Part shown: in pieces, positions 5,840-56,166 of the stretch
How the letters are laid out: each line of letters opens with the position of its first letter
Numbering within the stretch: the first letter of the stretch is position 1
Source of the DNA: Geosiphon pyriformis uo1
Lineage: Eukaryota > Fungi > Glomeromycota
Reading direction: 5' to 3'
Assembly (NCBI GenBank): GCA_016748015.1
Contig: JAAOMT010000675.1
Span: 62,001-126,000, forward strand
DNA: 64,000 nucleotides
Notes under the pieces: model-generated
Told to the model about the DNA's origin: nothing
The model's database searches: none
What the model saw: the letters and a program-made list of their open reading frames with translations, nothing else
Program-made: the position numbers and the translations under genes

Positions 5840-6599
5840 TATTACAGATGATTATTTGGGTGGTTAGAATAAATAACAAATTCATAACTTGATGCTTAAT
5901 AGCTGCTATAGTTGGTGATATCTGAAGATTTTCATATCTGAAGGTTTTGGTTGTCTAAAGGGTTTGGTTGTCTGAAAAGTTTGGTTGAGTTTTTTGTATA
6001 ATGATCAGAAATTCAAGGGTTATATTAATAGTCTCCTAAAATTGCAATTCTGTCAAGTTTTTTTTTTCAATGTAATAACTGGTTTATTCTGGCAATCATG
6101 CCTTTTTGGTAAGCTATCTATAAATTCTTTAAACTATGTATTCTTTCTTTGAGATTTTTTATCAGGCTATTCTTAATATTAATTACTCAGTGCTTACTTT
6201 TTTTAATCAGTTAGTAAATCAACAAACAACAAAGAAATAAAATAAATAAAATAAAAATAATGAAAAAAAATAAGAATTAGTATCTTATTAATAGCCATGA
6301 TTAAGAGCTATTGTTCTAGTGTAATTAAGTATTAAATTCTATTAACATAAAATGTTAATAGAATGGAAATGATTAATAGTCTTTAATTAAGTAATAATAA
6401 TATGAATTTAAGTGGTAATTGATAATTTATTGATAAGTAATATAGATTTTAAACTGCTTCTTTAACTGGAGATTCTAACTGTGTGTTTTAGTTGTTAATT
6501 CTCTCTTTTCTGCTTCTAATACTCTCACTATATATACATAATTAATGTTTTATAAAATCTCACACATTTATGAGCAATATGCTATAATTTTTTGAACAA
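5840..6599 (-). repeat. E1 5' LTR (U3 cut by the E4 insertion)
   Basis: R/U5 homologous to 13259-14173; TATA-like TATATATAG near 6528-6538; interrupted at 6600 by another LTR end. Confidence 0.85.
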
Positions 6600-8388
6600 T
6601 ATTACAGATGATTATTTGGGATCTGGAAACAAATAACAAATCTGTAACTTGGTGCTTAATTAGAAATATGGTTGATAATATCTGAAGGTTTTCATGATCT
6701 GAAGGTTTTTGTAATCTAAAAGTTTTGGTTTGAGTTCTTTGTATAATGAACAGAAATTCAAATGTGTTTTCTATAGCTTCCTGGAATTGCAATTCTGTCA
6801 AATTTTTTTCTCAACATAATGGCCAATAATCCTTCTAATAAGCTATCCTTAATCCTTGAATATTTTACTCTTATTCTTGGGTCTTTTACTAGTCACTTTG
6901 ACATTAATAACTCCATACATTAATCTTTAATTAATTAGTAAATAATAACAAACAAAGAAATAAAATAATGAAATAAGCCAAGACAAGAAAGATTAGTATC
7001 CTGTCAATAGTGATCAAGAGTTATTGGTCCAGTGTAGTTAAGTATTAGTAATTATCAACATAAATTGTGATAAAAAAAAGATGAATTGTAATATTTAATA
7101 AGTATTTTATTAATATTTTATGTTTTTTATTTCAAGTTATAGAATACTATTATATAAAAAGATAAATGGAGAATTGAATTAGAGGTTCTAAACTAAAGAT
7201 TCTTTTTTTTCTGCTTCTAATACTATTGCTATATATACATANNNNNNNNNNNNNNNNNNNNTATCTATAAATTCTTTAAACTATGTATTCTTTCTTTGAG
7301 ATTTTTTATCAGGCTATTCTTAATATTAATTACTCAGTGCTTACTTTTTTTAATCAGTTAGTAAATCAACAAACAACAAAGAAATAAAATAAATAAAATA
7401 AAAATAATGAAAAAAAATAAGAATTAGTATCTTATTAATAGCCATGATTAAGAGCTATTGTTCTAGTGTAATTAAGTATTAAATTCTATTAACATAAAAT
7501 GTTAATAGAATGGAAATGATTAATAGTCTTTAATTAAGTAATAATAATATGAATTTAAGTGGTAATTGATAATTTATTGATAAGTAATATAGATTTTAAA
7601 CTGCTTCTTTAACTGGAGATTCTAACTGTGTGTTTTAGTTGTTAATTCTCTCTTTTCTGCTTCTAATACTCTCACTATATATACATAATTAATGTTTTAT
7701 AAAATCTCACACATTTATGAGCAATATGCTATAATTTTTTGAACAATATTACAGATGATTATTTGGGATCTGGAAACAAATAACAAATCTGTAACTTGGT
7801 GCTTAATTAGAAATATGGTTGATAATATCTGAAGGTTTTCATGATCTGAAGGTTTTTGTAATCTAAAAGTTTTGGTTTGAGTTCTTTGTATAATGAACAG
7901 AAATTCAAATGTGTTTTCTATAGCTTCCTGGAATTGCAATTCTGTCAAATTTTTTTCTCAACATAATGGCCAATAATCCTTCTAATAAGCTATCCTTAAT
8001 CCTTGAATATTTTACTCTTATTCTTGGGTCTTTTACTAGTCACTTTGACATTAATAACTCCATACATTAATCTTTAATTAATTAGTAAATAATAACAAAC
8101 AAAGAAATAAAATAATGAAATAAGCCAAGACAAGAAAGATTAGTATCCTGTCAATAGTGATCAAGAGTTATTGGTCCAGTGTAGTTAAGTATTAGTAATT
8201 ATCAACATAAATTGTGATAAAAAAAAGATGAATTGTAATATTTAATAAGTATTTTATTAATATTTTATGTTTTTTATTTCAAGTTATAGAATACTATTAT
8301 ATAAAAAGATAAATGGAGAATTGAATTAGAGGTTCTAAACTAAAGATTCTTTTTTTTCTGCTTCTAATACTATTGCTATATATACATA
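6115..8388. other. Exact 1127-bp duplication (6115-7241 = 7262-8388) flanking a 20-N gap; probable unmerged contig overlap
   Basis: Apparently identical sequence at offset 1147 (identical ORFs 6568-6801 and 7715-7948); Ns at 7242-7261. Confidence 0.9.
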
Positions 8389-21674: not shown

Positions 21675-24600
21675 TCACCCATGCATTCTTGAACACTTTG
21701 AACAGCCAAAAAGGCAAGGAAAATAGGATAATGAATCTTGTTTCACATGTGGAACCACTCTACCAGATAAGGAAATGTGAAATAACATTCTTGGGCAAAG
21801 AGAAACATACAACAAAATATGTTAATACATAATTCTCATAAATGACTGGGTGAAAAAAAAACTCTAATTGACAACACATAAAAATAAGCACTTAGACATC
21901 TGGAAGGTTATTCACATAATAAGCACAAAATCTAGAAAATGGCAAGTGCCAAAGTTAAAAGTGCTTTACCCAGTAAACTACTAGAAATTAAAAACAATCC
22001 ACTTTCTCTTCCTGAATCCGAATATATTCTTACTTTTAACATTTTTGACAATGTTGAAAATGATTTAGAGTATTTCTATAAACATTACCAAAATTTAGCA
22101 CTTACTTAAAAAGAACAGAAGCAGTATTTAAAGCAACTGAACACTTAATTTTGTTAATACTGCTTAATTTCCTGTAACTTCTAATATTGTAATAAGTGTG
22201 ACTTTATTTACAATCCACCACTATACATGATCTACACAATCTCAGAAAAAAAAGAACCAATTAGCAACTGTATATTAGAATCAGAATTACCATTCAATTC
22301 TGATTCAAATTCTAACAATAAGAATGATGACAATGGTTCCAGCTTTATTCAAAATGGCAATGACAATAACAACAATTCAAACTCCAAACAATATATTGCA
22401 CTTCCTAATCTTTTTAAGAAGCAGAAACTAAAATGGTTTAATTATAATAACGAAAGTATTATGCCAGAACATGCACATAATACTGATGCAAAATTTGATT
22501 TAAAATACCCAGGAAAAGCAGCCATCAAATTGGAACCATATTTACACATCTGCATTGATCTTAAAGTAGCACTAGAAATCTCAACTACAACCATGGTTCA
22601 ATTAGCATCTAGGAACAGTTTAGCAAAAAAAGAAATTAATATAAGAGGAGAAATAATTGATGCAAGATATGTAGGAAATATTATTGCAATGCTACAAAAT
22701 GATTTAAAAAAACCTATATTATAAAGCTAAATAAAAAAATAGCACAGGCAATATTTTTTCTTTTGGTTAAAATAGCTCAATTAGTTTTAGTAAAAAATAA
22801 AGAGAAATTAGGGATGACAGCAAGAGAAACAAGTGGATTCGAATTCATGGGTAAAATAGATGTACCAGTCAATATGGAGAGAAAAAAGTTGTTGATAAGA
22901 GAGAAATTATCTCTATTTGTTAATCAATTTCTATTCCACCATATGACCAGTATATGTTAATATTAGAAAGAAAAGTAAAGGACCAGACACAGATTTTTGA
23001 AGCAGAACCAACTATTTGTAAATCAGAAGAAATTGGGTTCACAAATCTTTATACATCTGCCAAGAACAACAATTACATTAAAGTTCTTATCTACAATACA
23101 ACTGGAGATCCCATCAAAATAATAAAAGAAATTATTATTGGATACTTAAGCACTGAAGTTGAGAATCAACCATTAACAACATCCCAGATTTTCTACAACT
23201 GTGCAGATATGTAGACATTACATTTCAAACAATATATGGAAAAAAAAAATATTATTTGCTCCAATTAGAAAAATTGAAACAAATGAATTTAGAAAACTTA
23301 GATCCATTACAAAAAATACAACTTAAAATGTTATTCAATAATTTTACTAATATTTTTGCCAATAAGAATAAATTTGATAAAACTGATATTATTCAATACC
23401 AAATCAAGACAGAAGATGTAATGTCAATTAAGCAATAAGCATATTGAATACTACCAGCAAGCCATGAAATTATATAACAAGAAATTAACCAGATATTGGA
23501 TAATAGATTAATTCAACCATTAATAAGTTTATGGTTTTCACCAGTTGTATTGGTTCTGAAAAAGAATAGAAAAATTTGGTTTTACATAGATTACCAGAAA
23601 CTTAATGGAGTAACAAAAGGAGATAGCTATTCAACTCCAAAGATTCAAGAATTTTTCGATGCTTTTGGAGGAAAGAAATGGTTCTCAACTTTGAACTTAG
23701 ACAGTAGTTACTGGCAAGTAGCCATAAAGCCAGAAGATAAGAAGAAAACAGCTTTTACAACCCGAGAAAAAAATTTCAAATTTGAAGTTATGTTTTTTGA
23801 CTTAATGAATGCTTCAGCCATATTTCAACAGCTAATGGAAATAGTTTATAGAAGAATATGATGGAAATTAGTAGTTGTTTACTTAGATAATACCAATGTG
23901 TTCTTTAAGATATTTGATAATCATTTACACCATTTCCAACAAGTATTTGAAAGATTAAAAAGAGCCAGATTAAAGTTAAATGCCACTAAGTATTTCTTTG
24001 GAAAAATTGAACTCAAGTTTTTGGGACATGTTGTAAGCAAAGATGGCATCAAAACAGACTTAGACAAGATTAAGATTGTTAAAAACTTTTTAGTACCAAT
24101 TAATCTTCTAGAATTAAGAGCATTCTTGTGATTCACTGAATACTACTGCCACTTCATTCAGAACTTTTCCAAAATGGCCCAACCACTCTATCAGCTCCAA
24201 GCAAAGAGCATAAAATATGAATGGAAAGAGGAACAACAAAAAGCATTTGACACATTAAAGAAAAAGCTTATTTAAGCTCCAGTTCTAATATATCCAAATC
24301 ACAGTAAACTATTTATCATCACTACAGATGCATCAGACCAAGCATTAGGAGCTGTATTATCTCAGAAAAAACCAGATGGACAGGAACACCCAGTAGCATA
24401 TGCCAATAGAAGTTTGAGTCCAGCTGAAAAAACTATAAAACTCCAGCATTAAAACACTTGGCTATCTATTGGGCTGTTATTAAATAGAAAAAATACTTGA
24501 GTCAAAAGTTTAACATGTACATTGATCACAAAGGATTGACTTTAATCCAGAAACAAAAATTCAGAGATGATTGCTATACAAGATGAAAAATAGGACTTTC

Positions 24601-24683
24601 ACTATTTAATTATACAGTACATTATAAAAAAAAGAAAAAAAAACAGAAATGCTGATAATTTGTCATAAATAAAACAAATCTGA
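21675..24683 (+). pseudogene. E3 pol: Cys-rich insert, dUTPase, RT, RNase H
   Basis: ORF 22227-22724; RT motifs SPVVLV, YWQV, KTAFTT, YLDNT, KFLGHVV; RNase H TDAS..LGAVL; stop at 24681-24683. Confidence 0.9.
22430..22860 (+). pseudogene. Retroelement dUTPase domain (E3), decayed
   Basis: DAKFDL, ASRNSL, GEIIDARYVGN, KIAQAIF, ARETSGFEFMG are decayed motifs 1-5. Confidence 0.88.
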
Positions 24684-24711
24684 ATATTTCAACCCAAAAA
24701 TATAACAAAAT

Positions 24712-26090
24712 ATGAATACACAAAATATTAACAATTCCAACACTATATTAATACTCAGCAGTTCAAAGAAAAACTATCTCAAAAGGAATGAAACAACATA
24801 AAACAACAATTAAAATATTTTATTACTCACCAAAATATATTATATTAAAAAAACAGAAAGAATTCAGATCAATCACTCAAAGTAATTACAGAACCAGAAA
24901 AAGAAACAATACTATATAGCATGTATTTAGATCTGACAACAGAACACTTTTATAAAGAAACAACCATGGAAAAAACCAGAAAAATATATTATTGGCCATT
25001 AATGTATCCAGACATTATCCAATATGTTCAAAATTGTGATGCTTGTCAGAAAAAAAAAGAAATAAGATCCAATGAACCATTAAAACCAATCAAAGTAAGA
25101 TAATTATTTGATCAAATTGGAATTGATTTAGTTAAACCACTAACAATTACCAGCAAAGGCAACAGATATATTGTAGTAGCCATAGATTATCTTACAAAAT
25201 GGCCAAAAGCAAAAGCAATTCAAAGAGCAGATGCAGAATCCATAGCTGAATTTGTTCATTAAGATCTAATTTGTCAACATGGATGTCCAAAAAAATTACT
25301 ATCAAATCAAAGAACTCACTTTGTAAACAAAACACTAACAAAATTAAGTCAAAAATTTGAAATTAAAAGACCATTATTATCACTATACCATTCACAAATA
25401 AATAGTTTGATTGAAAAATTCAACAGAACATTGTGTAAAGCAATTGCCAAAATCAGCCAAAAAAACCAGGATGAATGAGATTTGTTTATACTATCAGTAT
25501 TATTTGCTTATTGGATAATAAAGCAAGATATCACACAAGTAACATCATTTAAATTAGTATATGGTAAAACTGCAATATTACCAGTTAAATTAGAAGTCAA
25601 CACATATTCAACAAAACCAATAACAGAAGACAATTTCCAAAAAACATTATTAAAAAGAATGTACAACTTAATAGAAACTTTGGAAAACAAATAACAAAAA
25701 GCAGTTAATAATATCCAAAAGTCACAAGCAAAACAAAAAAAAATGGCATAATAACTAATTACTAGATAAACCAGTCAAATTCAAGATTGAAAACAAAGTA
25801 CTTCTACATCATACCAAAATGAAAAAACAATGGAATGGGAAGTTTGACCCCAAATAAGATAGACCATTTCACATTGAAGAAATTCTAAAAAATAGAGCTT
25901 ATAAATTAAGATGAGACAACAAAATTTTAACCAAATTAGTACATAGTAATTAACTAAAATTTTATTATCACATATCATTATTTACTAATAGTATTCTACA
26001 ACTGGGAGTACAAAGAACATTAGTGAAACCAGATGAGATTCCATGAGATTTGGAACCAATTATACATATTAAAACAAAACATATTGATTT
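24712..26090 (+). pseudogene. E3 integrase (own ATG)
   Basis: HHCC remnant (..EHF..CDAC), IGIDLV, YLTKWP, EKFNRTL. Confidence 0.88.
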
Positions 26091-26119: not shown

Positions 26120-26792
26120 AAACATATGACAACAATAACAGAAAAATAGAAATTCCAGATCATATTTACTAATTAGCACAACAATTATTCCAGACCATAA
26201 ATTAACAACAAACAGACATAGAAATAATAATTAATTATCAAATTATCTGCTATAAAAACACTAAAAAAAAAGAAAAAAAATTACATCATATTAACAAATA
26301 CACAAAAAAATTAGCAATAATACTGATAAAATTGTTAAGAAAGTAAAAAGCACTCTTGAAAAACCAGCTGTTATTGTTCAACCAAGAAAAGTGATAACAA
26401 AAAATTGAGATTAATTAATAAAATAATTTCCAGTTTTATATTGCTATTGGCATTTGGGAAAAAAATTAATGATTCAAAATTTGTATATAAATCAAACCAA
26501 AAGAGTCTTTAATCAAAAAATTATACAAGACATAGAAATTTTTATTGGAAAAAAATTTAATTTGAATATATACATTAAAACTATCTACTGAATATACACT
26601 ACCTTTTAAGACTATCTAGAAATACTATTACAACCAGAAATTAGTAGCTTATCTATTAATCAATAAGGAAAAATGACCAATAGCCAGTTTAAAAAACTTC
26701 ATAGAAAAATAGAAAAAATAATCTTAGAAAAAAAAGTTATAAAATTATTACAAAAAGGAATATTAAAAGATTTTAACAGAGCTTAATATTAA
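26120..26792 (+). pseudogene. E3 ORF3, decayed
   Basis: IEIPDHIY.LAQQLFQ .. DFNRA*Y*; homologous to the other ORF3 copies. Confidence 0.7.
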
Positions 26793-27304: not shown

Positions 27305-29125
27305 CCAGTTAATATGGCAGAGAAAAAAGTTATTAACAAGAAAAAAATTATCTCCATCCATCAATCAATTTCCATTCTATTATATAATTAGTACATGTTA
27401 GCTATTGAAAAAAAAGTAAAAGATTAGGCTCAAATTTTTGAAGTAGAAACTACAATTTGTGAATCAAAAAAGATTGAACTCACCAATTTTTACATACCAA
27501 CCAAAAGCCCAAAACACATAAAAATTCCTATTCACAACACAACTAAAGATGTTATTGAGATACCAAAAAGAACTACCATAGGATATTTAAGCACTAAAGT
27601 CGAAAAACAACCACCAAGCACCATTTCAGATTTTCTACAACTGTGTAGATATGTAGATATCACATCACAAACAATATACAGATGAAAAAAATGTTATTTG
27701 CTTTAATTAAAACAATTGAAATAAATGAACTTGGAAAATTTAGACCCATTTTAAAGAATGCAACTCAAAATATTACTCAACAATTTTACAGATATTTTTG
27801 CAAATGAAAATAAATTTGGCAGAACTGATATTATCCAACATTAAATCAAGACTGAAAATACAATGCCAATCAAACAAAAAGCATACAGAGTACCACCAGC
27901 CAGCCATAAAATCATTTGACAGAAAATCAATCAAATGTTAAATAATAGATTAATTTAACTATCAATGAGTTCATGGTTATTACCAATAGTACTAGTCTAT
28001 TAGAAAAATGGAAAAATTCACTTTTGTGTGGATTACAGAAAACTCAACAGTATTATTCATAGAGATAGCTATTCAACTCCATGAATTCAGAAATTATTTG
28101 ATGCTTTTGGAGAAAAAAAATGGTTTTCAATATTAGATCTAAACAGTAGTTACTGGCAAATAGCCATAAAACCAGAAAACAAAGAGAAAACTACATTTAC
28201 AACAAGAGAAGAAAATTTTGAATTTGAAATTATGCTATTTGGTTTAACTAATGCACTGGCCATATTCTAATAGCTAATGGAAATTGTTTATACTAGACTG
28301 CTATAGAAATCAGTAATGGTCTACTTAAATAACACCAGAATATTCTCAAAAACATTTAACAATTATTTTCATCATCTACAACAAGTGTTTGAAAGACTAA
28401 GATGAGCAGAACTAAAGTTAAATGCTACCAAATACTTCTTTGACAAAACAGAATTGAAATTTTTGGAATATATTGTAAGCAAAAACAGCATCAAAACAGA
28501 TCCAAATAAAATTAAAATAGTCAAGAACTTTTTAGTACCAACAAATTTGATGAAACTATGAGCATTCTTAGGATTTGCTAGATATTACTGCCACTTTATT
28601 CAGAACTTCTCCAAACTGGCTCAACCACTCCACCAGCTTCAAGCCAAGAATATGAAATATAAATGGACTGAAGAACAACAAAAAGCATTCAACACTTTAA
28701 GAAAAAAGTTCATCCAAACACTAATATTAATCTATTCAGACTACAGCAAGTCATTTATCATTATTACTAATGTATTAGGTCAAGCATTGGGAGTAGTATT
28801 ATCACAAAAAAGACCAAATAGAAGAGAACACTCAATAGCATACACTAGCCAAAATTTAAGTCCAGCTGAAAAGAACTATAAAACACCAGCACTAAAACAT
28901 TTAGTTATCTATTAGGCAGTTATAAAATAGAAAGAATACTTAAGCCAGAAATTCGATATCTATACTAATTACAAAAGATTGACATCAATCCAGAAGCAAA
29001 AATTTGGAAATGATTGCCATGCTAAATAGAAAATAAAACTTTTACCATTTAAATATACAGTACATTACAAAAAAGAAAAAAAAAACAGAAATACTGACAG
29101 TTTGTTACAAATAAAACAAATTTAA
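27305..29125 (+). pseudogene. E2 pol: dUTPase-like repeat, RT, RNase H
   Basis: FCVDYRKLN, YWQIAI, FLGFARYYC, ORF 28652-28915; stop at 29123-29125. Confidence 0.88.
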
Positions 29126-29155
29126 AAACATTCTAATCCAAAAATATAACAAAAA

Positions 29156-30538
29156 ATGAATACACAAAAATATGAACAACTTCAACACTATATTAATACC
29201 CAGCAGTTTAAGGAAAAATTATTTCCAAAGGAACAAAACAACATAAAACAACAATCAAAATATTTTATTACTTATCAAAACATACTATATTGGAAAAACA
29301 GAAAAAATCCAGATCAATTACTCAGAGTAATTACAGAACCAAAGAAAGAAACAATACTGTACAACATGTACTCAAATCTAACAGCAAAATATTTTCATAA
29401 AAAAGCAACCATAGAAAAAACCAGAAAAAGATATTATTGACCATCAATGTATCTAGATATCATCCAATACATTCAAAATTGTGATGTTTGTCAAAGAAAA
29501 AGAGGAACAAGACCCAGTAAACCACTAAAACCAATTAAAATGGGACAACTATTTGATAGAATTGAAATTGACTTAGTTGAACTATTAACAATAACCAGCA
29601 GAAGAAATCATTATATAGTAGTAGTTATGAATTATCTTACCAAATGGCCAAAGACAAAAGCAATTCAAAGAGTGAATGCAGAATCTATAGCCAAATTTGT
29701 TTACCAAGATTTGAATTGTCAACATGAATGTTTAAAAGAATTGTTATCAAATCAAAAAACTCATTTTGTAAACAGAACACTAACAGAATTAAGCCAAAGA
29801 TTTGAAATCAAAAAACCATTATCATTGCCATATCATCTACAAACAAATGGTTTAGTGGAAAGATTCAACAGAACATTATGTGAAGCAATAACTAAAATCA
29901 GTCAAAAAAACCAAAATGAATAGAATTTGTTTATACTATTAGTACTATTTGCTTATAGAACAATGAAACAAGATACCACACAAGCAACATCATTTAAACT
30001 TGTTTATAGTAGAACAGCAATTTTACTAGTTAAGATAGACATTAATACATATTCAACAGAATCAATAACAGAAGCTAATTTACAAAAAACATTGCTGAAA
30101 AAAACATATAAACTAATAGAAACACTAGAAAACAAAAGATAAAGAGCAGTTGATAACATTCAAAAGTCACAAAAAAAACAAAAAAAACAACATGATAACC
30201 AATTACCAGATAAACCAGTTGAATTCAGAATTGGAAACAAAGTACTCTTATATTGTACTAAAATGGAAAAACAATGGAGTGGAAAATTTGATCTCAAATG
30301 GAATAGACCATTTTACATAAAAAAAATTCTAGGAAATAGAGCTTATAAATTAAGATGAAACAACAAAATCTTAATTAAAGCAGCACATAATGATCAACTA
30401 AAACCATATCACAATATAGCATCATTATTTACTAGTAATATTCCACAACTAAGAGTACAACAAATATTAGTTCAACCAGATGAGATCTTATGAGATCTGG
30501 AACCAATTATAATCATTGATTTAAATGCATCAAATTAA
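29156..30538 (+). pseudogene. E2 integrase (own ATG, MNTQKY)
   Basis: ORFs 29156-29440, 29447-29923 and 29927-30142 in one frame; CDVC, IDLV, NGLVERFNRTL. Confidence 0.92.
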
Positions 30539-38169: not shown

Positions 38170-39235
38170 GTGGTGACCACACCAGACACAACAACTCTAG
38201 AGTATTATCAGTCAATTTACACTTATTACAAGCAGAGATTCAATATTTCAGACGGAATTGAAATTGTTAAGAAGACACTTTACCAGTATATTGAAAACTG
38301 CATCAACAATTATTTTCTTGAAAATTACAACATTTCAGAAGTTAGAAGCAATCTCTACAATAATTTAGTGCATTATTTACAGTTAGGAACTGAAGACCTT
38401 AATAGTAAAACACTTGTCACCTACTTCTAAGAACTTAATTTTAACATTATCAAGTATTGTGAAGAAACATATTTAGTACAGTTTAAATATTCTATTGACT
38501 TTGAATTAGAGACAGAAACAAGCAACAAAGACAAACAAAAACTAAAACAACAATCAAGTACCACCCCAAATACTCCAAAGACACCAAAGACAACTGCCAA
38601 ACACTTACAAACACCTGAACAAAGAACCAGTATCAAATTACCACTTTCTATTACACTATTTCTAATTTTATTTGCTCAACCACAAACACCAAATTCACCA
38701 CTTAACCATTTCTCCAGACCAGAAAATTTTCAGTCACCTAGAAATCCTACTTAACAGCAAGAACCAATATCAACCAGCACCAATTTTCTTAATTACTTAC
38801 AGGAAAACAAAAGTAATTATTCAGAGAACCTGGAAAGTAAAAAAACCGAATTAGAACCAGAAAAAACTACAGAAAATAAAGAGGAAATGACAACTGCTTT
38901 TATTGCAAAAAATCCTAGAATTTACCAGTGAAAATAATGATACCAGCTCTTAAGAATGGCTTGACAAAGTTCAAAAAACAGCAGATACAAATGGTTGGAA
39001 TGCAGTAAGAATGCTTAAAACAATCTCATACTTTTTCCAAAGAACTACAAAAGAATGGTTTGAAAACTTAGAAGAACCATTTGAAAACTGACAAACATTC
39101 AAAGATGCTTTTTTACAATAATTCACTGACAACAACACCTCTATTACTCTTGACAATTGCTTTCACAATATCAAACAAGAAATATTTGAAACTGTTATGA
39201 CCTATCTTGAGAGATTTAACAAACTTCTTTGATAA
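38170..39235 (+). pseudogene. E6 gag, N-terminal part
   Basis: EWLDKVQKTADTNGWNAVRMLKTISYF capsid-like segment. Confidence 0.8.
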
Positions 39236-40049
39236 TATTACAGATAAATATTTGGGGTCTCAAATCAAATAACAAAACCCATAACTTGGTGTTCAAAAGC
39301 TATTTCGCAATAATGGTAATCTGAAGGTTTTGGTTGAGTTCTTTGTATAATGGACAAAGATTCAATAGTTGTTTCAGTAGCCTCCTAAAATTGCAATTCT
39401 ATCAAATTTTTTTCTCAGCATGGTGGCCAGTAATCCTTCTGATAAGCTATCCTTAAATCTATGAGTGTTCTATCCTTGTTTCACGAGTCTTTTACCAGTC
39501 TCTATGATGTCTGTATTTTAGTGCTTTAATTCTTTAATCAATTAGTAAATAACAACAAAAGAAAAAAAATAAAATAAAAGAAATAAAAAATAAGAAATAA
39601 GCCAAGGCAATAATGGTTAGTATCCTATCAATAGCCATGATCAAAAGCTATTGTTCTAGTGTGGTTAAGTATCAATTACTATCAACATGAAGTGTTGATA
39701 GTGGAGAGTGAATTTAAGATAGAAAATAATGATTTATTAATATTTGTAAATTGGAAGGTCACTTAGATTAAATCTAACTAAGAGGTCTGTTTTTTTTATT
39801 TCTAATACTATCACTATATATACATAATTGAGATTCCTCAATTTCTCAATTCTTCACTCCAGGAATCCTGCAATTCTTTTGAGAAAAATCTTGGAATTCT
39901 AGAATCCTGTGATTTTTTGTATAAGAATCCTGAAATTCCTGGAATTCTGCAATTCCTTTAAGAGAAATTCTGGAATTCCACATTTACTATGGTTACTTCT
40001 AATTGGCTAATTTATATACTAATATACTTTCTATATTCTATGAATAACA
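39236..40049 (-). repeat. E7 3' LTR
   Basis: Pairs with 48363-49193; PPT adjacent. Confidence 0.93.
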
Positions 40050-40062
40050 TTATTTCCTCCTT

Positions 40063-40717
40063 TTAATATTGAGCTCCATCAAAATCTTCTAATTCTAATT
40101 TTCCATCTTTGAGTATTTCTTGAACTTTTTTTTCAAGAATTATTTGTGCTATCTTGTTCTGTAATTCTTCAAATTAAGCATTGATTATTTTTCCCATTTG
40201 GTTAATGGTAATGAAGTTCATTTCTGGATTGAGTAAGATTTCTGGTTGATCTTGAAATCCAGTGTATAGCTAATAAATAGCTCTTGTTTGTGTGGTCAAA
40301 TTGTTCTTCCCCACAAATTGTTCCAGTTGTTGTAGTATTGTTGTGTCAAATAATTGTTTTGTTTTATCTGTGTACAAGCTCTGAATGTTCAAGTGTTGTC
40401 TTAAATAAAAGTAACAAAAGTTTCTTGGAAATTGTTGTATCCACCAATTCCAAGTTTCTATAGTCAATTCTTGATATTGGGTGACTTTTGGTTGTTTTTC
40501 TATTGCCAATTTCATTTTTGTGATTATTTTGTTAACAGTGTTTTCTGTTTTTCTCCATATTTTATCTTGTAGTTTTTTTCTGGTGTTTGTGTATTTGATA
40601 GTTTGTTGATTGATTGTAATTTCCATTTTTTGTTGTTGGATCAGTTAAAAGAGTTGTTGTGCTAGTAAGTGAATGCTATCTGTAATCTCTATTTTCTGCT
40701 GTTTTTTGTTATGTATA
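40063..40717 (-). pseudogene. E7 ORF3 (unknown ~220 aa protein)
   Basis: Includes ORF 40270-40626 (MEITINQQTI..WNWWIQQFPRNFCYF); ends DFDGAQY*. Confidence 0.75.
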
Positions 40718-40750
40718 CCATGTTTTTATATACTCTTTGGTTGTTCAATT

Positions 40751-42128
40751 TTATGTGTTTGGTTCAATAATTATAATTGGTTTTATATTTTGTGGAATCT
40801 CATTTGGTTTGACTAGTATTTTCTGTACTCCTAATTGTGAAATATTATTGGTAGATAATGATACTATATAATAATATTGTTTCAGTTGATCACTATGTGC
40901 TGCTTTGGTTAAAATTTTGTTGTTCAACCTTAATTTATAAGCTTCCATTTCCAAGAATTTCTTCTATGTGAAATGATTCATTCCATTTGGGGTCAAATTT
41001 TCCACTCCATTGTTTTTCTGCTTTAGTATAATGTAGAAGTACTTTGTCTCCAATTTTGAATTTAACTGGTTTTTCTGGTAATTGGTTATTGTGTCTTTTT
41101 TTTTGTTTTTTTTGTGACTTTTGAATGTTATCAGCTGCTCTTCACCATGTGTTTTCTAGTGTCTCTATTAAGTTATATGTCCTTTTCAACAATGTTCTTT
41201 GAAAATTCTCTTCTGTTATTGGTTCTGTTAGATATGTCTTAACTTCTATTTCAACTGGTAATATTGCTGTTTTACAATATACTAATTCAAATAATGTTGC
41301 TTGTATAGTATCTTGCTTTATTGTCTAATAAGCAAATAATATTGATGATATAATCAAATCCCATTTATCTTGGTTTTTTTGGCTGATTTTGGCAATGCCT
41401 TTACACAATGTTCTGTTAAACTTTTCAACTAGCCTGTTTGTTTGTAGATGGTATGGTAATGATAATGGTCTTTTTATCCCAAATCTTTGACTTAATTCTG
41501 CCAATATTCTATTCACAAAGTAAGTTCCTTGATCTGATAGTAGTTCTTTTGGACATCCATGTTGACAGATTAAATCTTGATAGATAAATTTAGCAATGAA
41601 TTTTGCATCTGCTCTTTAAATGGCTTTTGCTTCTGGCCATTTTGTGAGATAATCTATGGCTACTGCAATATATCTGTTGCCTCTGCTGGTAATTGTTAGT
41701 GGTCTGACTAAGTTAATTCTAATATGGTCAAATGGTTGTTTCACTTTGATTGGTCTTAATGATTCACTGGGTTTTGTTTCTCTTCTTCTCTGACAAGCAT
41801 CACAATTTTGAATATATTAGATAATGTCTGGATATATTGATGGCCAATAGTATCTTTTTCTGGTTCTTTCTATTATTGCTTCTTTATAGAAATGTTCTGC
41901 TGTTGGATTTGAGTACATGTTGAACAATATTGTCTTTTTCTCTGGTTCTGTGATTACTCTGGTTGGTTGATCTGGATTCTTTCTGTTTTTCTGATAAAAT
42001 ATATTTTGGTAATTGATAAAATATTTTGATTGTTGTTTTATGTTGTTTTGTTCTTTTTGAGATAATTTCTCCTTGAACAATTAAGTATTTATATAATGTT
42101 GAAGTTTTTGGTATTTTTGTATATTCAT
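40751..42128 (-). pseudogene. E7 integrase (own ATG)
   Basis: ORF fragments 41817-42080, 41325-41516, 40751-40954; HHCC and DDE remnants; no chromodomain seen. Confidence 0.9.
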
Positions 42129-42158
42129 CTTTTGTTATATTTTTGGGTTGAAATGTTT

Positions 42159-45100
42159 TTAGATTTGTCTTATTTGTGACAGACTATCAGCATTTCTATT
42201 TTCTTTTTCTTTTTTGTAATGTACTGTATAATTGAATAGTGAAAGTTCTATTTTTCATCTGATATGACAATTATCTCCAAATTCTTGCTTCTGAATTGAA
42301 GTCAATTTTTTGTGATTAGTGTACACATTAAACTTTTGACTCAAGTATTTTTTCTATTTGATGACAGCCCAATAGATAGCTAAGTGTTTCAGTGTTGGAG
42401 TTTCATAGTTTTTTTCAGCTGGACTTAAGCTTCTATTGGTATAAGCTACTGGATGTTCTCATTCATCCGGTTTTTTCTGAGATAATACTGCTCTCAATGC
42501 TTGACCAAATGCATTGGTTGTAATTATGAATGGTTTGCTATGATTTGGATAGATTAGTACTGGGGCTTAAATAAGCTTTCTTCTTAATATATCAAAACCT
42601 TCTTGTTAAGTTTCTGTCCATTTATATTTGGTGTTCTTTGTTTGGTATAGTGATTGAGCTATTTTGGAAAAGTCTTTGATAAAGTGGCAGTAGTATCCAG
42701 CAAATCCCAAGAATGTTCTTAATTCTGTGAGATTATTTGATACTGGAAAGTTTTTAACAATCTCAATTTTATCTGAATCTGTTTTAATACCATTTTTGCT
42801 CACAACATGTCCCAAAAACTTGAGTTCAGTTTTGTCAAAGAAATATTTGTTTGCATTTAATTTTAATTCTGCTTGTCTGAGTTTTTCAAATACTTGTTGA
42901 AGATGATGCAAATGATCATCAAATGTTTTTGAAAACACATTGGTGTCATCCAAGTATATAACTACTGATTTTCATAGTAGTCTTATATAAACAATTTCTA
43001 TAAGTTGCTGGAAAGTAGCTGGAGCATTCATCAAGCCAAATGGCATAATTTCGAATTCAAAGTTTTTTTCTCATGTTGTAAAAGCCATTTTCTTTTTGTC
43101 TTCCAGTTTCATGACTACCTGCCAGTAACTACTGTCTAAATCCAAAGTTGAGAACTATTTTTTTTTTCCAAAAGCATCGAAAAATTCTTGGATCTTTGGA
43201 GTTGGGTAGTTATCTCCTTTTGTTACTCCATTCAGTTTCTGGTAATCTACACAAAAGCAGATTTTTCTATTTTTCTTATGGACTAATACTACTGGTGATG
43301 ACCATGAACTTATTGATGGCTAAATTAGTCTGTTGTCAAGCATTCAATTGATTTCTTGATGAATGATCTCATGGCTGGCTGGTGGTACTCTGTATGCTCT
43401 CTGTTTAATTGGCATTGCATTTCCAGTCTTGATTTGATGTTAAATAATATCAGTTCTGCCAAATTTGTTTTTGCTGACAAAAATGTTATTGAAATTGTTG
43501 AGTAATATCTTAAGCTACATATGTTGTAGTGGATTTAAGTTTCCTATGTTCATTTGTTTCAATTGTTCTGGTTAGAACAAATAATATTCATTTCATTCAT
43601 ATATTGTTTGTAATATAATATCCACATATCTACAAAGTTATGAAAAGTCTGGAATAGTGTCTGGCAATTGGTCTTCAATTTTGGTGGTTAAGTATCCAAT
43701 GGTGATTCCTTCTGGTATTTTGATGACATTTTCCATGTTGTTATAAATGGAAATTTTGATGTAACTGTGGTTCTTGGCTGGTATGTATATATTAACTAAT
43801 CCAATCTTTCCTGATTCACAAAGTGTTGCTTCTGCCTCAAAAATCTGAACCTGATTCTTTACTTTCCTCTCTATGGTTACCATGTACTGGTCATATGATT
43901 GAATAGAAATTGATTGACAGGTGGAGATAATTTCTTTTTTGTCAATGATTTCTTTCTCTGCCATATTAACTGGTATATCTACTCTATTTGTTAATTCAAA
44001 ACTCTGTATTTCTCTAGCTGTGATTCCTAATTTTTCCCTGTTTCTTACTGACACTAACTGAGCTATTTTTACCAGAAGTAGAAATATTGTCTGTGCTATT
44101 TTTTTGTTTGGCTCTATGATATAGGCTTTTTCAAAGTTATTTTGTAGTATTACAATAATGTTTTCTACATATTCTACATCAATTATTCCTCCTCTGATAT
44201 TTATTCTTTTTTCACTAAGCTACTTCTAGATGCTAGTTGAACTATTTTTGTTGCTGGTATTTTTAATGCTACTTTGAGATTAATGCATGTGTGTAAATGT
44301 GGTTCTAATTTGATGACATTTTTTCTTGGATATCTTAGATTAAACTCTGCATCAGTATCATGTACACGTTTTGGCATGATGCCTTTGTCATTATTACTGA
44401 ACTATTTAAGTTCCTGCTCCTTGGTAAGATTAGGGAGTGTGATGTATTGTTTGGGGTTTGAATCAGAGTTTAAATCATCATAATTTTTGTTGCCATTTTG
44501 AGCAGAGCTGGAATTGTTGTTTTCATCATTATCATTGTTGGAGTTTGAATTAGGATTAAAAATCAATTTCAATTCTGATATGCAACTGTTGATTGGTTTT
44601 TCCTTTTCTGGAATTGTGTAGATCATGTATGATGGTAGATTGTAAATGAAATCACACTTATTACAATACTAAAAGTCACATGGGATCAAACAATGGTCAC
44701 ATAGTTTTGTGTTTATTTCTTCCAACCATTGCTCTTGTTCCTCTCTAGTGAGTGCTAATTCCTGGTAGTGTTCATGGAATTGTTTCAAATTCAGGAGATT
44801 TATGACTGGTTCTGGGTTTCAGTCAAGTTCTATGGACTCTGAAGGGTTATTTTTGATTGTCTTTATTTCTTTTGGTGATGTTTTTTTGATTTTGGTAAGA
44901 GTCATTTGCTATATTTTGTCATCATCATGTAAACAGCCATCCAAATGTTTGACTGCTTATCTCCAGGCAGTGTCTATAAGTGTTTTTTTTTTTATCCAAT
45001 CACTTATAAAAATTGTGTACTGACATGATTTGTTGCATGTTTTTCCTCTTCCAGGAATGTCATTCCACATTTTTTCGTTGAGGAAAGTTTTTCTACAAGC

Positions 45101-48100
45101 CAAGCATGGCTTATTATCCCATTTTCCAACTCGTTTTGGTCTTTCAAAGCATTCAATAAGACATGGATGGCAATAGAACTTAGTTGCCATTTGGTATTCT
45201 TTATTATCGCCACAGTATGTGTCCATTGACAACAATTTCTTGTCACAATCAATACATATAAGCTTTGGTTGGCAATAAGTGAATTATTGTAGCATAGTGT
45301 AGGTGTAGGAATTATACATGGTGGTGCTAGTGGGTGTTGTTTCTTTTTCTTTTTCTTTTTCTTTTTTTTTTGTATTCTTTTTCCACTCTCACATTGATGT
45401 CAGCTTGGTGTTGTCTTTATTGTCAGTCCACTATGTTTGGTCAGCATTTTCAATAGATTTTTCCTTTTTCTTTCCCTTTCCATTGTTGTTCTAAAAGAGT
45501 ATTGGTGATAACTTGTTGTGGTCGTTTTTAGCCCAGGATACTTGATAGGCTTCCCAAGTAGGTTTTTTCTCTTCTTTCTTGAGCTCAATAAGTGGTGTTA
45601 GTATGTTAGTGGTCTTAAAATGGCCACATGTGGCTAGTATGTATGTGTGTTAACCATTCTGGCTAAGTTGAAGCTCTTGCATGTTCCAATCAAGCATCAC
45701 ATTGGTTTTGAACAGCCAATCATTACCAATGAGTGCTTGGTATTGAGTAGCTTTTATGACTAATATTTTAATTGACATGATGATGCTATTGACTTCTATA
45801 GAGAAGTTATCAATCTCATTAATCAGAGTTTTGGTTGTTTTATCAGCAGTGATAATTTGTGTACTAGCAGCTCGATCAACTTGGTGACTTAATTGGTCCA
45901 TAAGTTGTTTTGTGATAATGCTGCCAGCTAATTTACTGTTTAAGATCAGTTTGATAAAGTGACCATCAACTTTGGCATTAGTGTACATGGCAGTGATGAG
46001 TTTTTCTTTGAGCATGGCTCTACTAAACAATAGTATTTGTGACAGTTTTTTGACTTCAAATGGGAAAATTGCTGCTAATAATTTGTTATTGGTAATAGTT
46101 ACTGGAGGTATGTTGCTAGTAAGTGGTTGTTTTTTGTTGGCTTCTGAGTTATTGGGTGAGGCATCTTCTGGAGTAACTAAGAGGCTTAAATAGTTCTAAG
46201 AACTTAAGTTTTGGGTGTACCCAGTTCCTGAACTCCACTGTCAGGATCCTGATGGTTGATTTGATAAACTGGGAACCAGTTGATAGACAACTATTGCTAA
46301 TCTCCAATTTTGAGTGACTCTCAATCTGAGATTTCTTGATGTTATTTGAGCTGGGTTTGGTGGTGATGTTTGAAGTTGTTAAGGTTGATAACTTACTGGT
46401 GGCTGTGGTTAATATAGTACTTGTAGCTGTATTTGATAAATTGGAGATTGATATACAGGTGTTTGATAAATTGGCTGCTGCATTATTGGCAAGTAAGTCA
46501 GTTGATATGGAGCTGAATTTACTTGATGATTTGGAGTTGGGAACTGGCAATTGGAGTTTTATTATTGATTTTTTGATCGTTGGTTATTTATTCTTAATCT
46601 GCAGTTGATTCTCAAATGTCTTGGTTTACCACAGTAATGGCAAACACACATCTCCTGCTGCCACTGTTAATTGGCTGAGGATGATGGACACGACTAATTC
46701 TGGAAACAATTCACGTTTCTCTGATTATTGTATCATTGTAAAGGTTGATAAATGGCTTGATTGTTAGCTAAGTATTCCTTTAATTTCTGATTAATGGAAT
46801 TATTGAATTGTTTCAACTTAAAATCCAATTCAGATGATCCATTCATCACTAGATTAATGACTTAAGTGTGGTTAGCTTTGAGTTTGGTGGCTTTGAAATC
46901 CTGTGCATTGGTAACTACATCTTGGAGAGTTTGTAAGTGCATTGGGCGTATACATTGGAGAATGCTACTATGCAGTCCACAGATGAACTGGTTTAAAATC
47001 TGTGGTGCTGTAAAATAGTCAACTTGGATTGCTTGAATTTGGTGCAAGTTTCTGTGAAAACATCCCAAGTAAGTGGTAACTGCTTTAGTTTCTCTCTGTT
47101 TGATTGTGATAAAGATATTGGTTAGGCAATTAATACTGTTATTATTACTGAAATATTCCAAGAATGCAATTTTGAATTCCTGGAATGTTTAAGGTTTGGT
47201 GGCTAAACTTTGATACCATGAGTTGACAGTATTCTATAAGAAATAGGAGATGGCTTGAAATGCCCTGACATTGTTCTATCTATTGGCTGTGATAGCTTTT
47301 TCTATATCATTTAGCCACACTTGTGTGTTGTTCTCTTTGCCTATAAATTTTTTGAGTTTTGCTATTGGAGTGTAGGCCATTAGATCCATGTTTGGTTGTT
47401 GTGGTGGTTGAAGGGGTAGTGGCTGAGGTGGTATTAGCAGCTGTTAAAGTTGTTCAACAATTGGATCAATTGGTTGCTGATTGATAATAATTTCTGGAGA
47501 TAAGTTTTCTTGATTAATTAACTCAGAATTTGGATTATTTGGAGTTTGCTGGGTTGAACTATTTGGGGTTTCAACTTCCAGATTTTCTATGATTGGGTTT
47601 TGGTAAGTAAATTCCTGATCCTTACTTTTTTTTTTTCTTCTTCTTCTGATTCTGTTACTTCCCACAAACTTATGGTTCCAAAGTCTGGTTGAGATAGCAG
47701 TAATCAAAATCCTGATAGCATTGGTGATTGTGATTTAAATTCTTTAAAATATTTACTATATAATTCCAATAACTCTGCTCTTCTTTGTTTATTTTGAAAT
47801 GGGAATCATTCAGAGGTTAATGTCATATTTAATGTAAATACATCTGCTAACAAGATATTGATGGCACTTCCTGGTGCATAATGGTATGATTAATTGGTTG
47901 GTGATTCAACTCGGGTTTTCTTTTAAGTAGATGGTTGTATTTTTTTGGATGTTATTACTAGTGTTTGCAATCTTTCTTTGCCTTTGTCTGTGTAGGTAAT
48001 GAGGAATTGTTGTTGAATGTATCTTTTAATGGTTTGATTGATTTTTCCAATGATTGGTGCAAAACTGTAATTTCTTGGTAAACTGGTATGTTGAAACAAT

Positions 48101-48360: not shown

Positions 48361-48362
48361 AA

Positions 48363-49193
48363 TGTTACAGGTAAATATTTGAGGTCTCAAATCAAATAAC
48401 AAAACTCATAACTTGGTACTTAAAAGCTATTTTGCAATAATAGTGATCTGAAAGTTTTGGTTAAGTTCTTTGTATAATGGACAGAAATTCAATAGTTGTT
48501 TTAGTAGCCTTCTGGAATTGCAATTCTATCAAATTTTTTTCTCAGTATGGTGACCAGTAATCTTCTTGGTAAGTTATCCTCAAATTTATGAGTGTTTTAT
48601 CCTTGTTTCACGGGTCTTTTACCAGTCCCTATTATGTCTGTATTTTAGCACTTTAATCTTTTAATCAATTAGTAAATAACAACAAAAGAAATAAAATAAA
48701 ATAAAAAAAATAAAAAATAAGAAATAAGCCAAGGCAATAATGGTTAGTATTCTGTCAATAGCCATAATCAAGAGCTATTGTTCCAGTGTGGTTAAGTATC
48801 AATTATTATTAATATGAAGTGTTAATAGTGGAGAGGAAATTTAAGATAAAGAATAATAATTTATTAATATTTGTGAATTGGAAGGTCACTTAAATTAAAT
48901 CTAACTAGGAGATCTGTTTTTTCTACTTTTAATACTACCACTATATATACATAATTGAGATTCCTCAATTCCTCAATTTTTCACTTCAGGAATTCTGAAA
49001 TTCTTGGAATCCTGCAATTCTTTTGAGAGAAATCCTGGAATTCTGGAATCCTGCAATTTTTTGTATAAAAATCCTGAAATTCCTAGAATCCTGCAATTTC
49101 TCTGAGAAGAATCCTGGAATTCCATATTTACTATGGTTACTTCTGATTGACTAATTTATATACTAATATACTTTTTATATTCTATGAGTAACA
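48363..49193 (-). repeat. E7 5' LTR
   Basis: TGTTAC..TAACA termini both intact. Confidence 0.93.
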
Positions 49194-53569: not shown

Positions 53570-56166
53570 ATATCATGACTTTTGACATCTTTGGCAACAT
53601 TAAAGATGATTCAAAATACTTTCATGAGCACTACCAAAACCTGGCACTAACTAAAGAAGAGCAGAAACAAAGGCTAGTTGACCTAAACACAAAACTGTGC
53701 AATCATTTTTTGATCCCTTGTTACTTTCAGTACTGTAATAAATGTGATATTATGTTTAACCTACTTTCAAAAAAACTATATCTGATCACCAAATTACTGA
53801 AACTCAAGATAGAAAAAGAATTAATCACCGAAAACATGTTGTTTCAAAATCTAATTGAGAATATCAAAACAGAATAGTATTTCACATATCCCAATCTATT
53901 TAAAGAATTAGAATTAAAATGGTATAGTGACAATGAAGAAAAAATTTGTTTCAAAAGAGTACATAACACTGATGCTAGTTTCAACTTATGATATCTTGAA
54001 CAATCACTCATAATTATAGTTCCATATTCTTTTATAACAATAGATCTTAAGATAGCATTAGAAATCTCTGTTAGTACAATAATACAAGTTGCCTTTTGAT
54101 CTAGTTTAACCAAAAAAGGAATTGACATAAAGGGAGGAATTATTGATGCTGGTTATAGAGAAAATATTATTGTGATATTGCAGAACAATTCAAATAAACC
54201 CTACAAAATAGAATTACATGACAAAATAGCCCAAGCTATCTTTTTGCTCTTAGTGAAAATACCACAATTAACCCTAGTGACAACTCACAAAGAATTAGGC
54301 CTTACCACTAGAGGAATCAATGGATTCAAATCAAGTAGAAAAGGAAACATACCAGTTAATTTTATGGAGGAAGATAGTGACAAAGTAGAACTTATCTACA
54401 CCAACACCATCATTTCTATCCTTCTATACTGACAATACATTCTTAAAATGAACAAAACAATCCAAAATCAAGCTCTGTTATTCGAAGTGGATTCTGAAAT
54501 CTGTTCTCTAGCCAATGTTGCTAACTTATACCTATCAGCAAAGGCTCATAAGCACTTTAAAATCCCAATTTACAATTTGACTGAAAATGTTATAGAAATT
54601 CCAGAGGGAACTTTTGTTGGTTCCATATTTCCAGATATTCAGAATTCAGATAAACCCCAATTCATTCCAAATTTTGCACAATTGTTCTTATTCTGTGATA
54701 TTATCTCACAAGTATAGAACCTGCCAAAAAAAAGTTACTTGTTCATACCAAAAGAAATCAATAAATTCAATTTGGGAAACCTGAGCACTTTACAACAAAT
54801 GCAACTTAAGGTTCTATTGAACCAATATGCTGATATCTTTGCCAGCAAAAATGAGTTTGAACACACTGATATCATAAAGCATCAGATTGATATGGGAGGT
54901 GCTTGACTGATTAAACAACAGGCTTACCAAGTGCTCCCATCTGGTGACAATCTTATTAAACAAGAAGTCTAACAAATGCTCAACAATGGCTTAATCAAGG
55001 AATTGTTAAGCTCTTGATCCTCTTCAGTAATTCTGGTTATCAAGAAAAATAGAAAAGTACAATTCTGTGTGAATTATCAAAAATTAAATAGCATCACCTG
55101 AAAAGATAGTTATCCCACTCTTTTTATCCAAGGAATTCTGGACAATTTAGGAAAAAAAAAATAGTTCTTATCATTAAATTTAGCCAGCAGATATTGGCAG
55201 ATTGAAATGGATTTCAAAGATAAAAAAAAAATGGTATTTACCACTCAAGATGGAAACTTCAAGTTTAATGTAATGCTTTTCGAACTCTACAATGTTTTTG
55301 CCATGTTTCAATGCCTTATGAATGTTATGTACAAAGAAATTCTTTAGAAATCAGTCATAGTTTACTTAAACAACACAAACATATTCTCTAAAATGTTCAA
55401 CAATTATTTGTTTCATCTTCAACAAGTCTTTGAATGCCTCCAAAATGCTGGATTAAAACTCAATCCCAAGAAATGTTTCTTTGGGAAAACCAAGTTGAAA
55501 TTTCTAGAACACATAATCAGCAAAGACAGAGTCAAACCTAATTCAGACAAGATCCAAAAAGTTAAAAATTTTCCAGTTCCAATCAACCTCCAAGAGTTAC
55601 AAGAATTTTTAGAATTGGCAGGATACTATTGCTGATTTGTGAAAGGGTTTTCAACTATCACAAAACTTTTTCACCACTTGTTATCCAAATATGTGCTGTA
55701 CCTGTGGAAAGAAGATCAACAAAAAGCCTTTAACTATTTCAAGCAGCAACTGATCATATCTCCAATATTAATTTACCCTGATTTCACTAAACATTTCATT
55801 GTCGCTACAAATGCCTCGACAAATACACTAGGAGTCATTTTGTCACAAATAGAACCAGACAACAGAGAATATCTAATTGCATATACTAGTTGTAACACAA
55901 GTCTAGCTGAGAAAATTTATAGTGCAATGGATCTAGAATGTTTCACCATCTATCGGACAGTACAAACATGGAAACACTACCTTAGTCAACTATTTGACCT
56001 ATATACAGATTATAAGAGACTCATCTGGTTATTCAATAACCCACAACTAGAAAAAAAATATGCAAGATAGAGTACTTATCTGCAACAATTTCCACTCAAA
56101 ATTTATTACAAAAAAGAATCCAAGAACACTAATACTGACAGTTTGTTGAGGATACCACAAACCTAA
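53570..56166 (+). pseudogene. E9 pol: Cys-rich insert, dUTPase (~53920-54345), RT, RNase H
   Basis: GGIIDAGYREN, KIAQAIF, TRGINGFKSS; RT ORF 55393-55635; RNase H ORF 55639-56070; stop at 56164-56166. Confidence 0.9.

Follow-up and report, generated by a model that had tools for sequence, protein, structure and literature searches.

Does the integrase (IN) of a long terminal repeat (LTR) retroelement have to be made as part of Pol? In canonical Ty3/Gypsy elements, IN is the C-terminal part of the Pol polyprotein, and in textbook LTR retroelements the polyprotein tie between IN and reverse transcriptase (RT) fixes the dose of IN and carries it into the particle. The question was raised by a stretch of 64,000 nucleotides from the fungus Geosiphon pyriformis uo1 (contig JAAOMT010000675.1, positions 62,001 to 126,000 of the forward strand; hereafter the window), an almost pure nest of decayed Ty3/Gypsy-type LTR elements. 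According to an earlier note on this DNA, IN is an open reading frame (ORF) of its own in the four copies that retain the junction with Pol. This arrangement was found across the lineage, in 52 of 54 informative loci, and the split of IN from Pol is almost certainly genuine.

The junctions in the window, with the two ORFs flanking that of the minus-strand copy, are listed below.

24681..24714 (+), copy A junction: TGA at 24681, 28-nt spacer, IN ATG at 24712, out of frame
29123..29158 (+), copy B junction: TAA at 29123, 30-nt spacer with a second in-frame TAA, IN ATG at 29156
42162..43451 (-), minus-strand copy, RT and RNase H: PF00078, PF17917, PF17919 and our own RT-RNase H profile; ends NADSLSQ-IRQI
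42159..42161 (-), minus-strand copy, Pol stop: TAA
42129..42158 (-), minus-strand copy, spacer: 30 nt, A/C-rich, second in-frame TAA at 42137-42135, no ATG
40751..42128 (-), minus-strand copy, stand-alone IN ORF: ATG at 42128; PF17921, PF00665
56164..56179 (+), junction of copy D, a divergent family: TAA at 56164, 10-nt spacer, IN ATG at 56177, out of frame

The stops, ATGs and spacers (28, 30, 30 and 10 nt) were exactly where the earlier note had placed them, and the second TAA that it reported in both 30-nt spacers was confirmed. Its statement that RNase H (RH) ends three residues after a decayed NADxLSR motif needed correction, the count being four (IKQI, IRQI, IPQT). The 56164 copy was divergent as described, with ~65% nucleotide identity versus 74-76% among the other three copies and an IN identity of at most 56% versus 70%. 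Pfam placed RT_RNaseH before and Integrase_H2C2 after the junction in all four copies, and rve in three of them, the 29156 copy having rve_3 only. The minus-strand IN ORF is decayed, with one frameshift close to its C-terminus, and consists of an N-terminal extension, H2C2, a DDE core and an SH3-like tail; a profile of stand-alone INs matched it from position 1.

Decay in the window follows a strong C>T/G>A pattern. CpG stood at 0.11 of expectation in the whole window, TpA at 0.78, and TpG and CpA at ~1.27; transitions made up 78 of the 81 differences between the two LTRs of the minus-strand element. Each window copy carried 15-28 stops in RT-RH plus IN, and two Trp-derived stops inside RT-RH (columns 159 and 400) were common to all three aligned copies. 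Because hypermutation stops are also common to copies, a stop shared by all of them is weak proof of a split, and relatives were needed as proof. That the split is not decay follows from the out-of-frame spacers and, above all, from intact relatives. Window 40000-44000 was matched by a single DNA sequencing run, X1, possibly from the window's own sample, and by none of the RNA runs listed. In contigs of X1, six junction variants shifted the spacer length (+9, +7, +1, -7, -24 and -24 nt). No variant of at least 2% affected the second TAA (42135-42137) in these contigs, with nearby C sites variable, which is a hint only, as contigs lose rare variants.

Relatives were collected by a protein search with the window IN, which gave 202 matches of 238-758 aa, a length range that shuts out fused forms. 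The 120 matches listed were mostly 400-440 aa long and 38-55% identical to the window IN. Members with a named host came from Glomeromycotina (Rhizophagus irregularis, R. clarus, Cetraspora and Entrophospora), which by itself makes a host in this group likely for the window too; intact-length members of the lineage are present in R. irregularis. The lineage is abundant: a soil metagenome collection, scanned in 17 of its 64 parts with the best 80 of 545 stretches kept, is estimated to hold ~2,400 matching stretches, and the hosts of the relatives are likely soil fungi. Prokaryote-genome and viral collections gave mostly insertion sequence (IS)-type integrases or stray contigs. Of 161 loci, 91 were examined (L numbers below), the remaining 70 being weak bacterial IS-type matches. 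Because their ranking was based on resemblance to stand-alone INs, the loci represent this lineage and not Gypsy elements in general.

The end of RH lay upstream of IN in 54 of the 91 loci, most of the others being too short to tell. The earlier note had named intact copies with a continuous RH-IN frame as the finding that would mark the stops as hypermutation products; instead, 52 of the 54 were split, 50 with an assignable ATG and two more by inspection (L055, L064). The two fused loci (L081, L087) are both distant relatives. In 17 loci RT-RH and IN were each a single intact ORF, and the DDE residues were invariant in 84 INs. The split thus runs through the lineage. The typical element order was gag, protease, dUTPase in some, RT-RH, stop, IN, usually a further ORF termed ORF4, and LTR. 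No description of the split was found in the literature searched; Repbase and most subscription papers lay outside that search and may already annotate the layout.

The relation between the two frames was examined at 46 unique junctions. IN lay in the three frames relative to Pol 16, 15 and 15 times, sister pairs often differing in frame; the Pol stops were TAA (22), TGA (13) and TAG (11), and the gaps from Pol to IN spanned -14 to +827 nt. Such random framing rules out readthrough and a fixed frameshift. A readthrough context was seen at none of 50 RH stops, and a slippery word lay near 7 of the 50, in mixed frames. Readthrough contexts did occur further upstream, between the Gag(-protease) ORF and RT, in seven loci, as TGA-CTA in six and TAG-CAA-TTA in one; a site after the protease instead of after gag looks unusual. 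In other loci the Gag-RT region has overlaps with slippery heptamers. The positions of the in-frame readthrough stops are as follows.

L013:870, in-frame readthrough stop
L016:3290, in-frame readthrough stop
L024:902, in-frame readthrough stop
L063:3358, in-frame readthrough stop
L064:929, in-frame readthrough stop
L066:1585, in-frame readthrough stop
L085:2879, in-frame readthrough stop

Fused proteins were sought in a second search for longer forms, in which six of the 120 listed (of 729 matches) were at least 44% identical to the query. The NADxLSR motif was missing from the close NCBI 'fused' proteins P0121-P0123, which suggests that their gene models place introns across the junction; P0125 lacked RT, and P0126 is an ambiguous gene model. 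The JGI protein P0124 is a continuous RH-IN-ORF4-like protein nested deep among split elements in the IN tree (support 99), and is likely a secondary re-fusion, or else an artefact of assembly or gene calling.

In the RT-RH tree (FastTree), all 41 split rows, of which 38 were loci and three were copies from the window, fell in one group with support 91, together with three R. clarus/Cetraspora models and four 'fused' rows, P0124, P0126, P0127 and P0203; in the IN tree (FastTree), P0127 and P0203 lay outside the split group. An approximately unbiased test on 30 rows (IQ-TREE) did not reject a single clade for 17 split rows (p 0.578), which is no proof of one. The simplest reading is one origin of the split with rare re-fusion. 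The window copies grouped with L004 (support 99), whose TAA follows the NADxLSR motif by three residues and whose spacer is 24 nt long. The split elements fell among Gypsy-type Pols from the longer-form search, in a tree set without named reference elements.

The IN start was conserved as well. Met1 did not vary among the 62 stand-alone INs aligned, and of the 120 INs listed, 105 began with MD, ME or MN. At 66 unique starts, A occupied -3 in 70% and G occupied +4 in 76%, compared with 32% and 31% at 344 internal in-frame ATGs; +5 was A in 66 of 66. The IN ATG is thus a genuine start in a strong Kozak context. Met-Asp/Glu/Asn is the NatB acetylation pattern; a helix-cap constraint could be an alternative cause.

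How would such an IN be expressed? We give termination-reinitiation on the element RNA an even chance of being the main route. Ribosomes that finish Pol at its stop codon would start again at the closest AUG, that of IN. Post-termination 40S subunits would slide back up to ~14 nt to the AUG in its strong Kozak context, or alternatively would scan forward to it across an ATG-poor spacer, and the product would begin with Met-Asp/Glu/Asn. A conserved RNA structure before the AUG in one sub-clade may aid ribosome retention or entry. By analogy with foamy virus Pol, the free IN might enter the particle through binding to genomic RNA or Gag, not within Gag-Pol.

The geometry of the junctions is consistent with reinitiation. 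In 14 of the 46 unique junctions the gap between Pol and IN is -14 to +2 nt. None of the 13 stop/start overlaps exceeds 14 nt, whereas the first out-of-frame stop fell at so short a distance in 28-33% of 57 other INs, and the overlaps were shorter than expected by chance (Mann-Whitney p 0.003 and 0.0015). Counted from 15 nt before the Pol stop, the IN ATG was the first ATG in 13 of the 14 overlap junctions and in 18 of the 27 with a short spacer, and short spacers held 11 ATGs where 20 were expected (p 0.004). ATGs upstream of the overlaps were not depleted (20 versus 21 expected in 60 nt), with one 7 nt upstream of the IN start in L066 and one 15 nt upstream in L024, which disfavours a scanned 5' leader. 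TAATG and ATGA overlaps occur at junctions of the lineage, and many IN-to-ORF4 junctions share the Pol-IN geometry (-1, -4, -8, -11 and +3). There are precedents: a review of reinitiation describes stop-restart coupling in SART1, LINE-1 reinitiation across a 63-nt spacer and, in cauliflower mosaic virus, TAV-driven reinitiation across a few to 700 nt (PMC5972666).

Other observations weigh against reinitiation. Spacers of 308-943 nt were found in 6 of 47 junctions, the IN ATG being first in none of the six, and ATGs were at the expected level in the five long spacers counted (49 versus 51); some of these may be decayed Pol tails. An earlier ATG was present in 9 of 27 short-spacer junctions, and the spacer class was mildly ATG-poor in the 60 coding nt before the Pol stop (27 versus 41, P 0.012), which fits a leader starting inside RH. 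No excess of UGGGA, resembling a termination upstream ribosome-binding site (TURBS), was detected (2 of 48 upstream regions versus 1.4 expected). Because a readthrough stop or an apparent frameshift often precedes RT-RH, few ribosomes would get as far as the Pol stop, which might leave IN in short supply. In L036, L046 and L054, a distance of 1.1-1.6 kb separates ORF4 from IN. The 13 overlaps come from about five clades, with the 14-nt limit chosen after the data were seen, and short overlaps could equally result from selection against long stretches of dual coding. The route of expression may vary between sub-clades.

The long spacers, the ATG depletion, the lack of UGGGA, the flux and the distant ORF4 are the reasons why a capped subgenomic IN mRNA, made from an internal promoter in the end of RH or the spacer and with short overlaps as mere compaction, is retained as the main rival, a possible but unlikely one. 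The strong Kozak context suits ordinary scanning, long ATG-rich spacers exist, mild ATG depletion precedes the Pol stop in the spacer class, and the supply of IN would be freed from low Pol output; seven of the 27 short spacers contain a run of at least five T, and a pyrimidine tract with TATAAG is present in L048. Such a promoter is harder to reconcile with overlaps shorter than chance and an overlap class that tolerates ATGs 7 and 15 nt upstream, and no shared 5-mer or 6-mer stood out in the 100 nt upstream, RH motif codons aside.

A spliced, env-like mRNA, in which the 5' leader is joined to an acceptor close upstream of the IN AUG, is improbable, even though CTAATCCCAG stands before the ATG in copy D and foamy virus Pol comes from a spliced mRNA (PMC3705302). 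The splice-like words that the earlier note pointed out before the ATG are not supported. One of them, TAACAAAAG, reads TAACAAAAT and TAACAAAAA in two sister copies, so that its AG is absent in two of three. Among 66 unique relatives, neither YAG nor CTRAY was in excess in any bin within 300 nt upstream of IN, and a branch word followed by AG within 80 nt was found in only seven.

Recruitment of ribosomes internally by a structured RNA before the IN AUG, independently of Pol translation (cap-independent, like an internal ribosome entry site), was considered with reference to a covarying RNA motif of 37 nt just before the IN ATG. We hold little expectation for it. The motif was strong in 18 of 87 loci and weak in one more.

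L018:4464-4500, RNA motif, type example
L011, L014, L017, L018, L027, L032, L034, L037, L040, loci with the RNA motif
L046, L047, L050, L051, L054, L071, L078, L080, L082, further loci with the RNA motif
L021, weak match to the RNA motif

It comprises a 3-bp closing helix, an A-rich bulge, a 6-bp stem, a bulged A and a 2-bp triloop hairpin; its GGUGAAA start resembles what we take to be a T-loop word. The model was built on ten loci, and two others were near-copies of training rows. The training loci were 99% paired, with five pairs changed on both sides and none of 500 shuffles as high on percentage paired; the six held-out copies were 100% paired, with four pairs changed on both sides, in an alignment fitted to the model. 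This covariation, and an end 0-10 nt upstream of the AUG in 17 of 19 carrier loci, would suit internal entry. The motif is confined to one 99-supported clade of the IN tree, which includes the R. irregularis IN P0011, has no match in the window and is absent from most loci (19 of 87 match); packaging, RNA stability or reinitiation would be equally plausible roles. Over the motif in eight loci, Rfam gave no match at E 5 or better, and look-ups for the motif and the accessory ORF found nothing. Six pattern matches in viral contigs were rejected, the paired stems being absent by eye. Pol tails of 216-587 aa beyond RH were observed in L011, L018, L027, L049, L050, L054, L063 and L083, mostly in the clade that bears the motif; neither of the two tails tested gave a convincing match in Pfam.

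The weakest explanation takes the stops as products of C>T/G>A decay in a once continuous Pol, or has IN made by readthrough or frameshifting. It can draw on the heavy hypermutation of the window with its shared Trp stops, on first stops (TGA/TAA) that could come from CGA and on the continuous P0124 inside the clade, but it is very improbable and is already refuted for the lineage by intact split loci, 17 of the 52 split loci having both ORFs intact. Against it also stand the use of all three frames, different in sister pairs and without readthrough context, the TAA of L004, the locus nearest to the window copies, and the lack of the NADxLSR motif in P0121-P0123.

ORF4, a conserved ORF of ~140 aa between IN and the 3' LTR, was present in 23 of 32 loci with at least 700 nt after IN, often tightly spaced to IN, and ORF4 sequences formed 608 clusters at 50% identity. 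An example and the remnants in the window are as follows.

L049:5455-5874, ORF4, example
26427..26723 (+), copy A, ORF4 remnant: tblastn with the L004 ORF4, 33% over 103 aa, E 6.6e-10
40063..40700 (-), approximate limits, minus-strand copy, decayed ORF4 between IN and the polypurine tract: homology by eye and via 26427-26723

Generic ORF4 profiles gave no significant match at 40063-40700. Among 23 members, no Pfam family was matched at a meaningful level (best E 0.013), and no convincing sequence match was found in PDB. The predicted model is all-helical, with a predicted local distance difference test score (pLDDT) of 97.1; Foldseek returned no match in PDB or BFVD at E 0.001 or better, and the best hit of a wide VIA structure search had Z 4.5 (root-mean-square deviation 3.3, 70 aligned); these results show neither a new fold nor its absence. 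ESM Atlas offered PF01818, a translation repressor (0.93, 134 shared features), as a lead only. In L012, a NUDIX hydrolase ORF (1945-2889; PF00293, E 1.4e-10) begins 43 nt after IN and replaces ORF4. Antisense ORFs that look like coiled coils follow IN at L046:7089-7358, L051:2272-2604, L054:2780-3346 and L030:5493-6122, some of them between IN and a distant ORF4.

The remaining features of the minus-strand element, which is ordered LTR, gag, protease, dUTPase, RT-RH, IN, ORF4 and LTR, are listed here.

48361..49193 (-), 5' LTR: TG...CA termini, 88% identity to 39234-40049
46601..47380 (-), gag core, decayed, from a capsid-like domain to a CCHC knuckle: PF03732, E 1e-5
45710..45980 (-), approximate limits, aspartic protease, decayed: PF13975, E 0.0065, motif at 45949
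43998..44377 (-), dUTPase domain 5' of RT, broken by a frameshift: PF00692, E 1.8e-4
39234..40049 (-), 3' LTR: purine tract before it, end TA, decayed

A stretch resembling a primer binding site (TTTGG) follows the 5' LTR. A dUTPase between protease and RT was seen in the window at 43998-44377 (-), ~22200-22700 (+) and ~53950-54340 (+), and also in L069; that of the copy D element matched PF00692 at E 1.2e-12. A long Cys-rich insert precedes the dUTPase in the window elements. Positions 6115-7241 and 7262-8388 are a perfect 1,127-nt duplication flanking a gap of 20 N (7242-7261), likely an assembly artefact. Elements of the lineage in bacterial records (L082-L085; Arachidicoccus, metagenome-assembled genomes of Bacteroidetes and TM6, and Candidatus Glomeribacter gigasporarum) are likely fungal contamination.

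The lineage is of Ty3/Gypsy (Metaviridae) type in every respect tested, with LTRs, a purine tract, a Ty3-type Gag with CCHC, the order protease-RT-RH-IN, an H2C2 plus DDE integrase and gag-pol recoding signals, except that its IN lies outside the Pol polyprotein; it is a variant, not a canonical member. It further differs in the soluble-looking ORF4 after IN and, in some members, in the tail after RH. Unlike chromoviruses, it has no C-terminal chromodomain in the INs checked: none was found on the L049 IN or P0011, nor in the precomputed domains of the 120 INs listed. Stand-alone Gypsy-like integrases are known from Ginger/GIN, which the free Gypsy-type IN ORF of ~420 aa resembles; identity with these DNA transposons, in which IN stands without RT between terminal inverted repeats, was rejected, as the IN here lies inside LTR elements, directly behind RT-RH, and the window contains LTRs. 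It is plausible, as a speculation, that the lineage is a stepping stone to free integrases such as Ginger/GIN.

On this layout, IN is probably expressed separately from Pol and would need its own packaging route into the particle. Foamy viruses (Spumaretrovirinae) offer an analogy, in that an enzyme is made apart from Gag and a separate encapsidation route is needed; their Pol is synthesised independently of Gag and has to be encapsidated on its own (PMC3705302), viral RNA serving as the bridge (PMC3196705). In foamy viruses the whole Pol including IN comes from a spliced mRNA, whereas here IN alone is detached and splice signals are not enriched. TAATG/ATGA overlaps and short spacers between long ORFs are shared with SART1, LINE-1 and the fungal victoriviruses and hypoviruses; these couple ORF1 to ORF2, whereas the lineage would couple RNase H to integrase, with far more variable spacing and no shared TURBS. 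To our knowledge, caulimoviruses lack an integrase. The lineage resembles Caulimoviridae in having long ORFs tightly spaced or briefly overlapping on a reverse-transcribing element (PMC5972666); no evidence from the sequence and structure searches links ORF4 to TAV in descent or in action. A wider proposal, which we consider doubtful, is that the lineage is polycistronic like plant pararetroviruses, with gag-pol, free IN and ORF4 made by serial reinitiation, ORF4 acting as a new translational transactivator or IN chaperone and the hairpin as a new reinitiation or IN-loading element; if so, this would be the first group of LTR retroelements to package integrase without relying on Pol.

The layout is unexpected and lends itself to experiments in a model fungus; the mechanism proposed for it is read from sequence geometry. 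Gene models bridge the junction with seemingly false introns, and software that relies on an intact Pol would take these elements for broken ones. The RNA motif and ORF4 are new parts open to test. The lineage shows that the polyprotein tie between IN and RT is dispensable, and it provides a natural system for studying how integrase reaches the particle and what lets fungal ribosomes restart once a long ORF has been translated.

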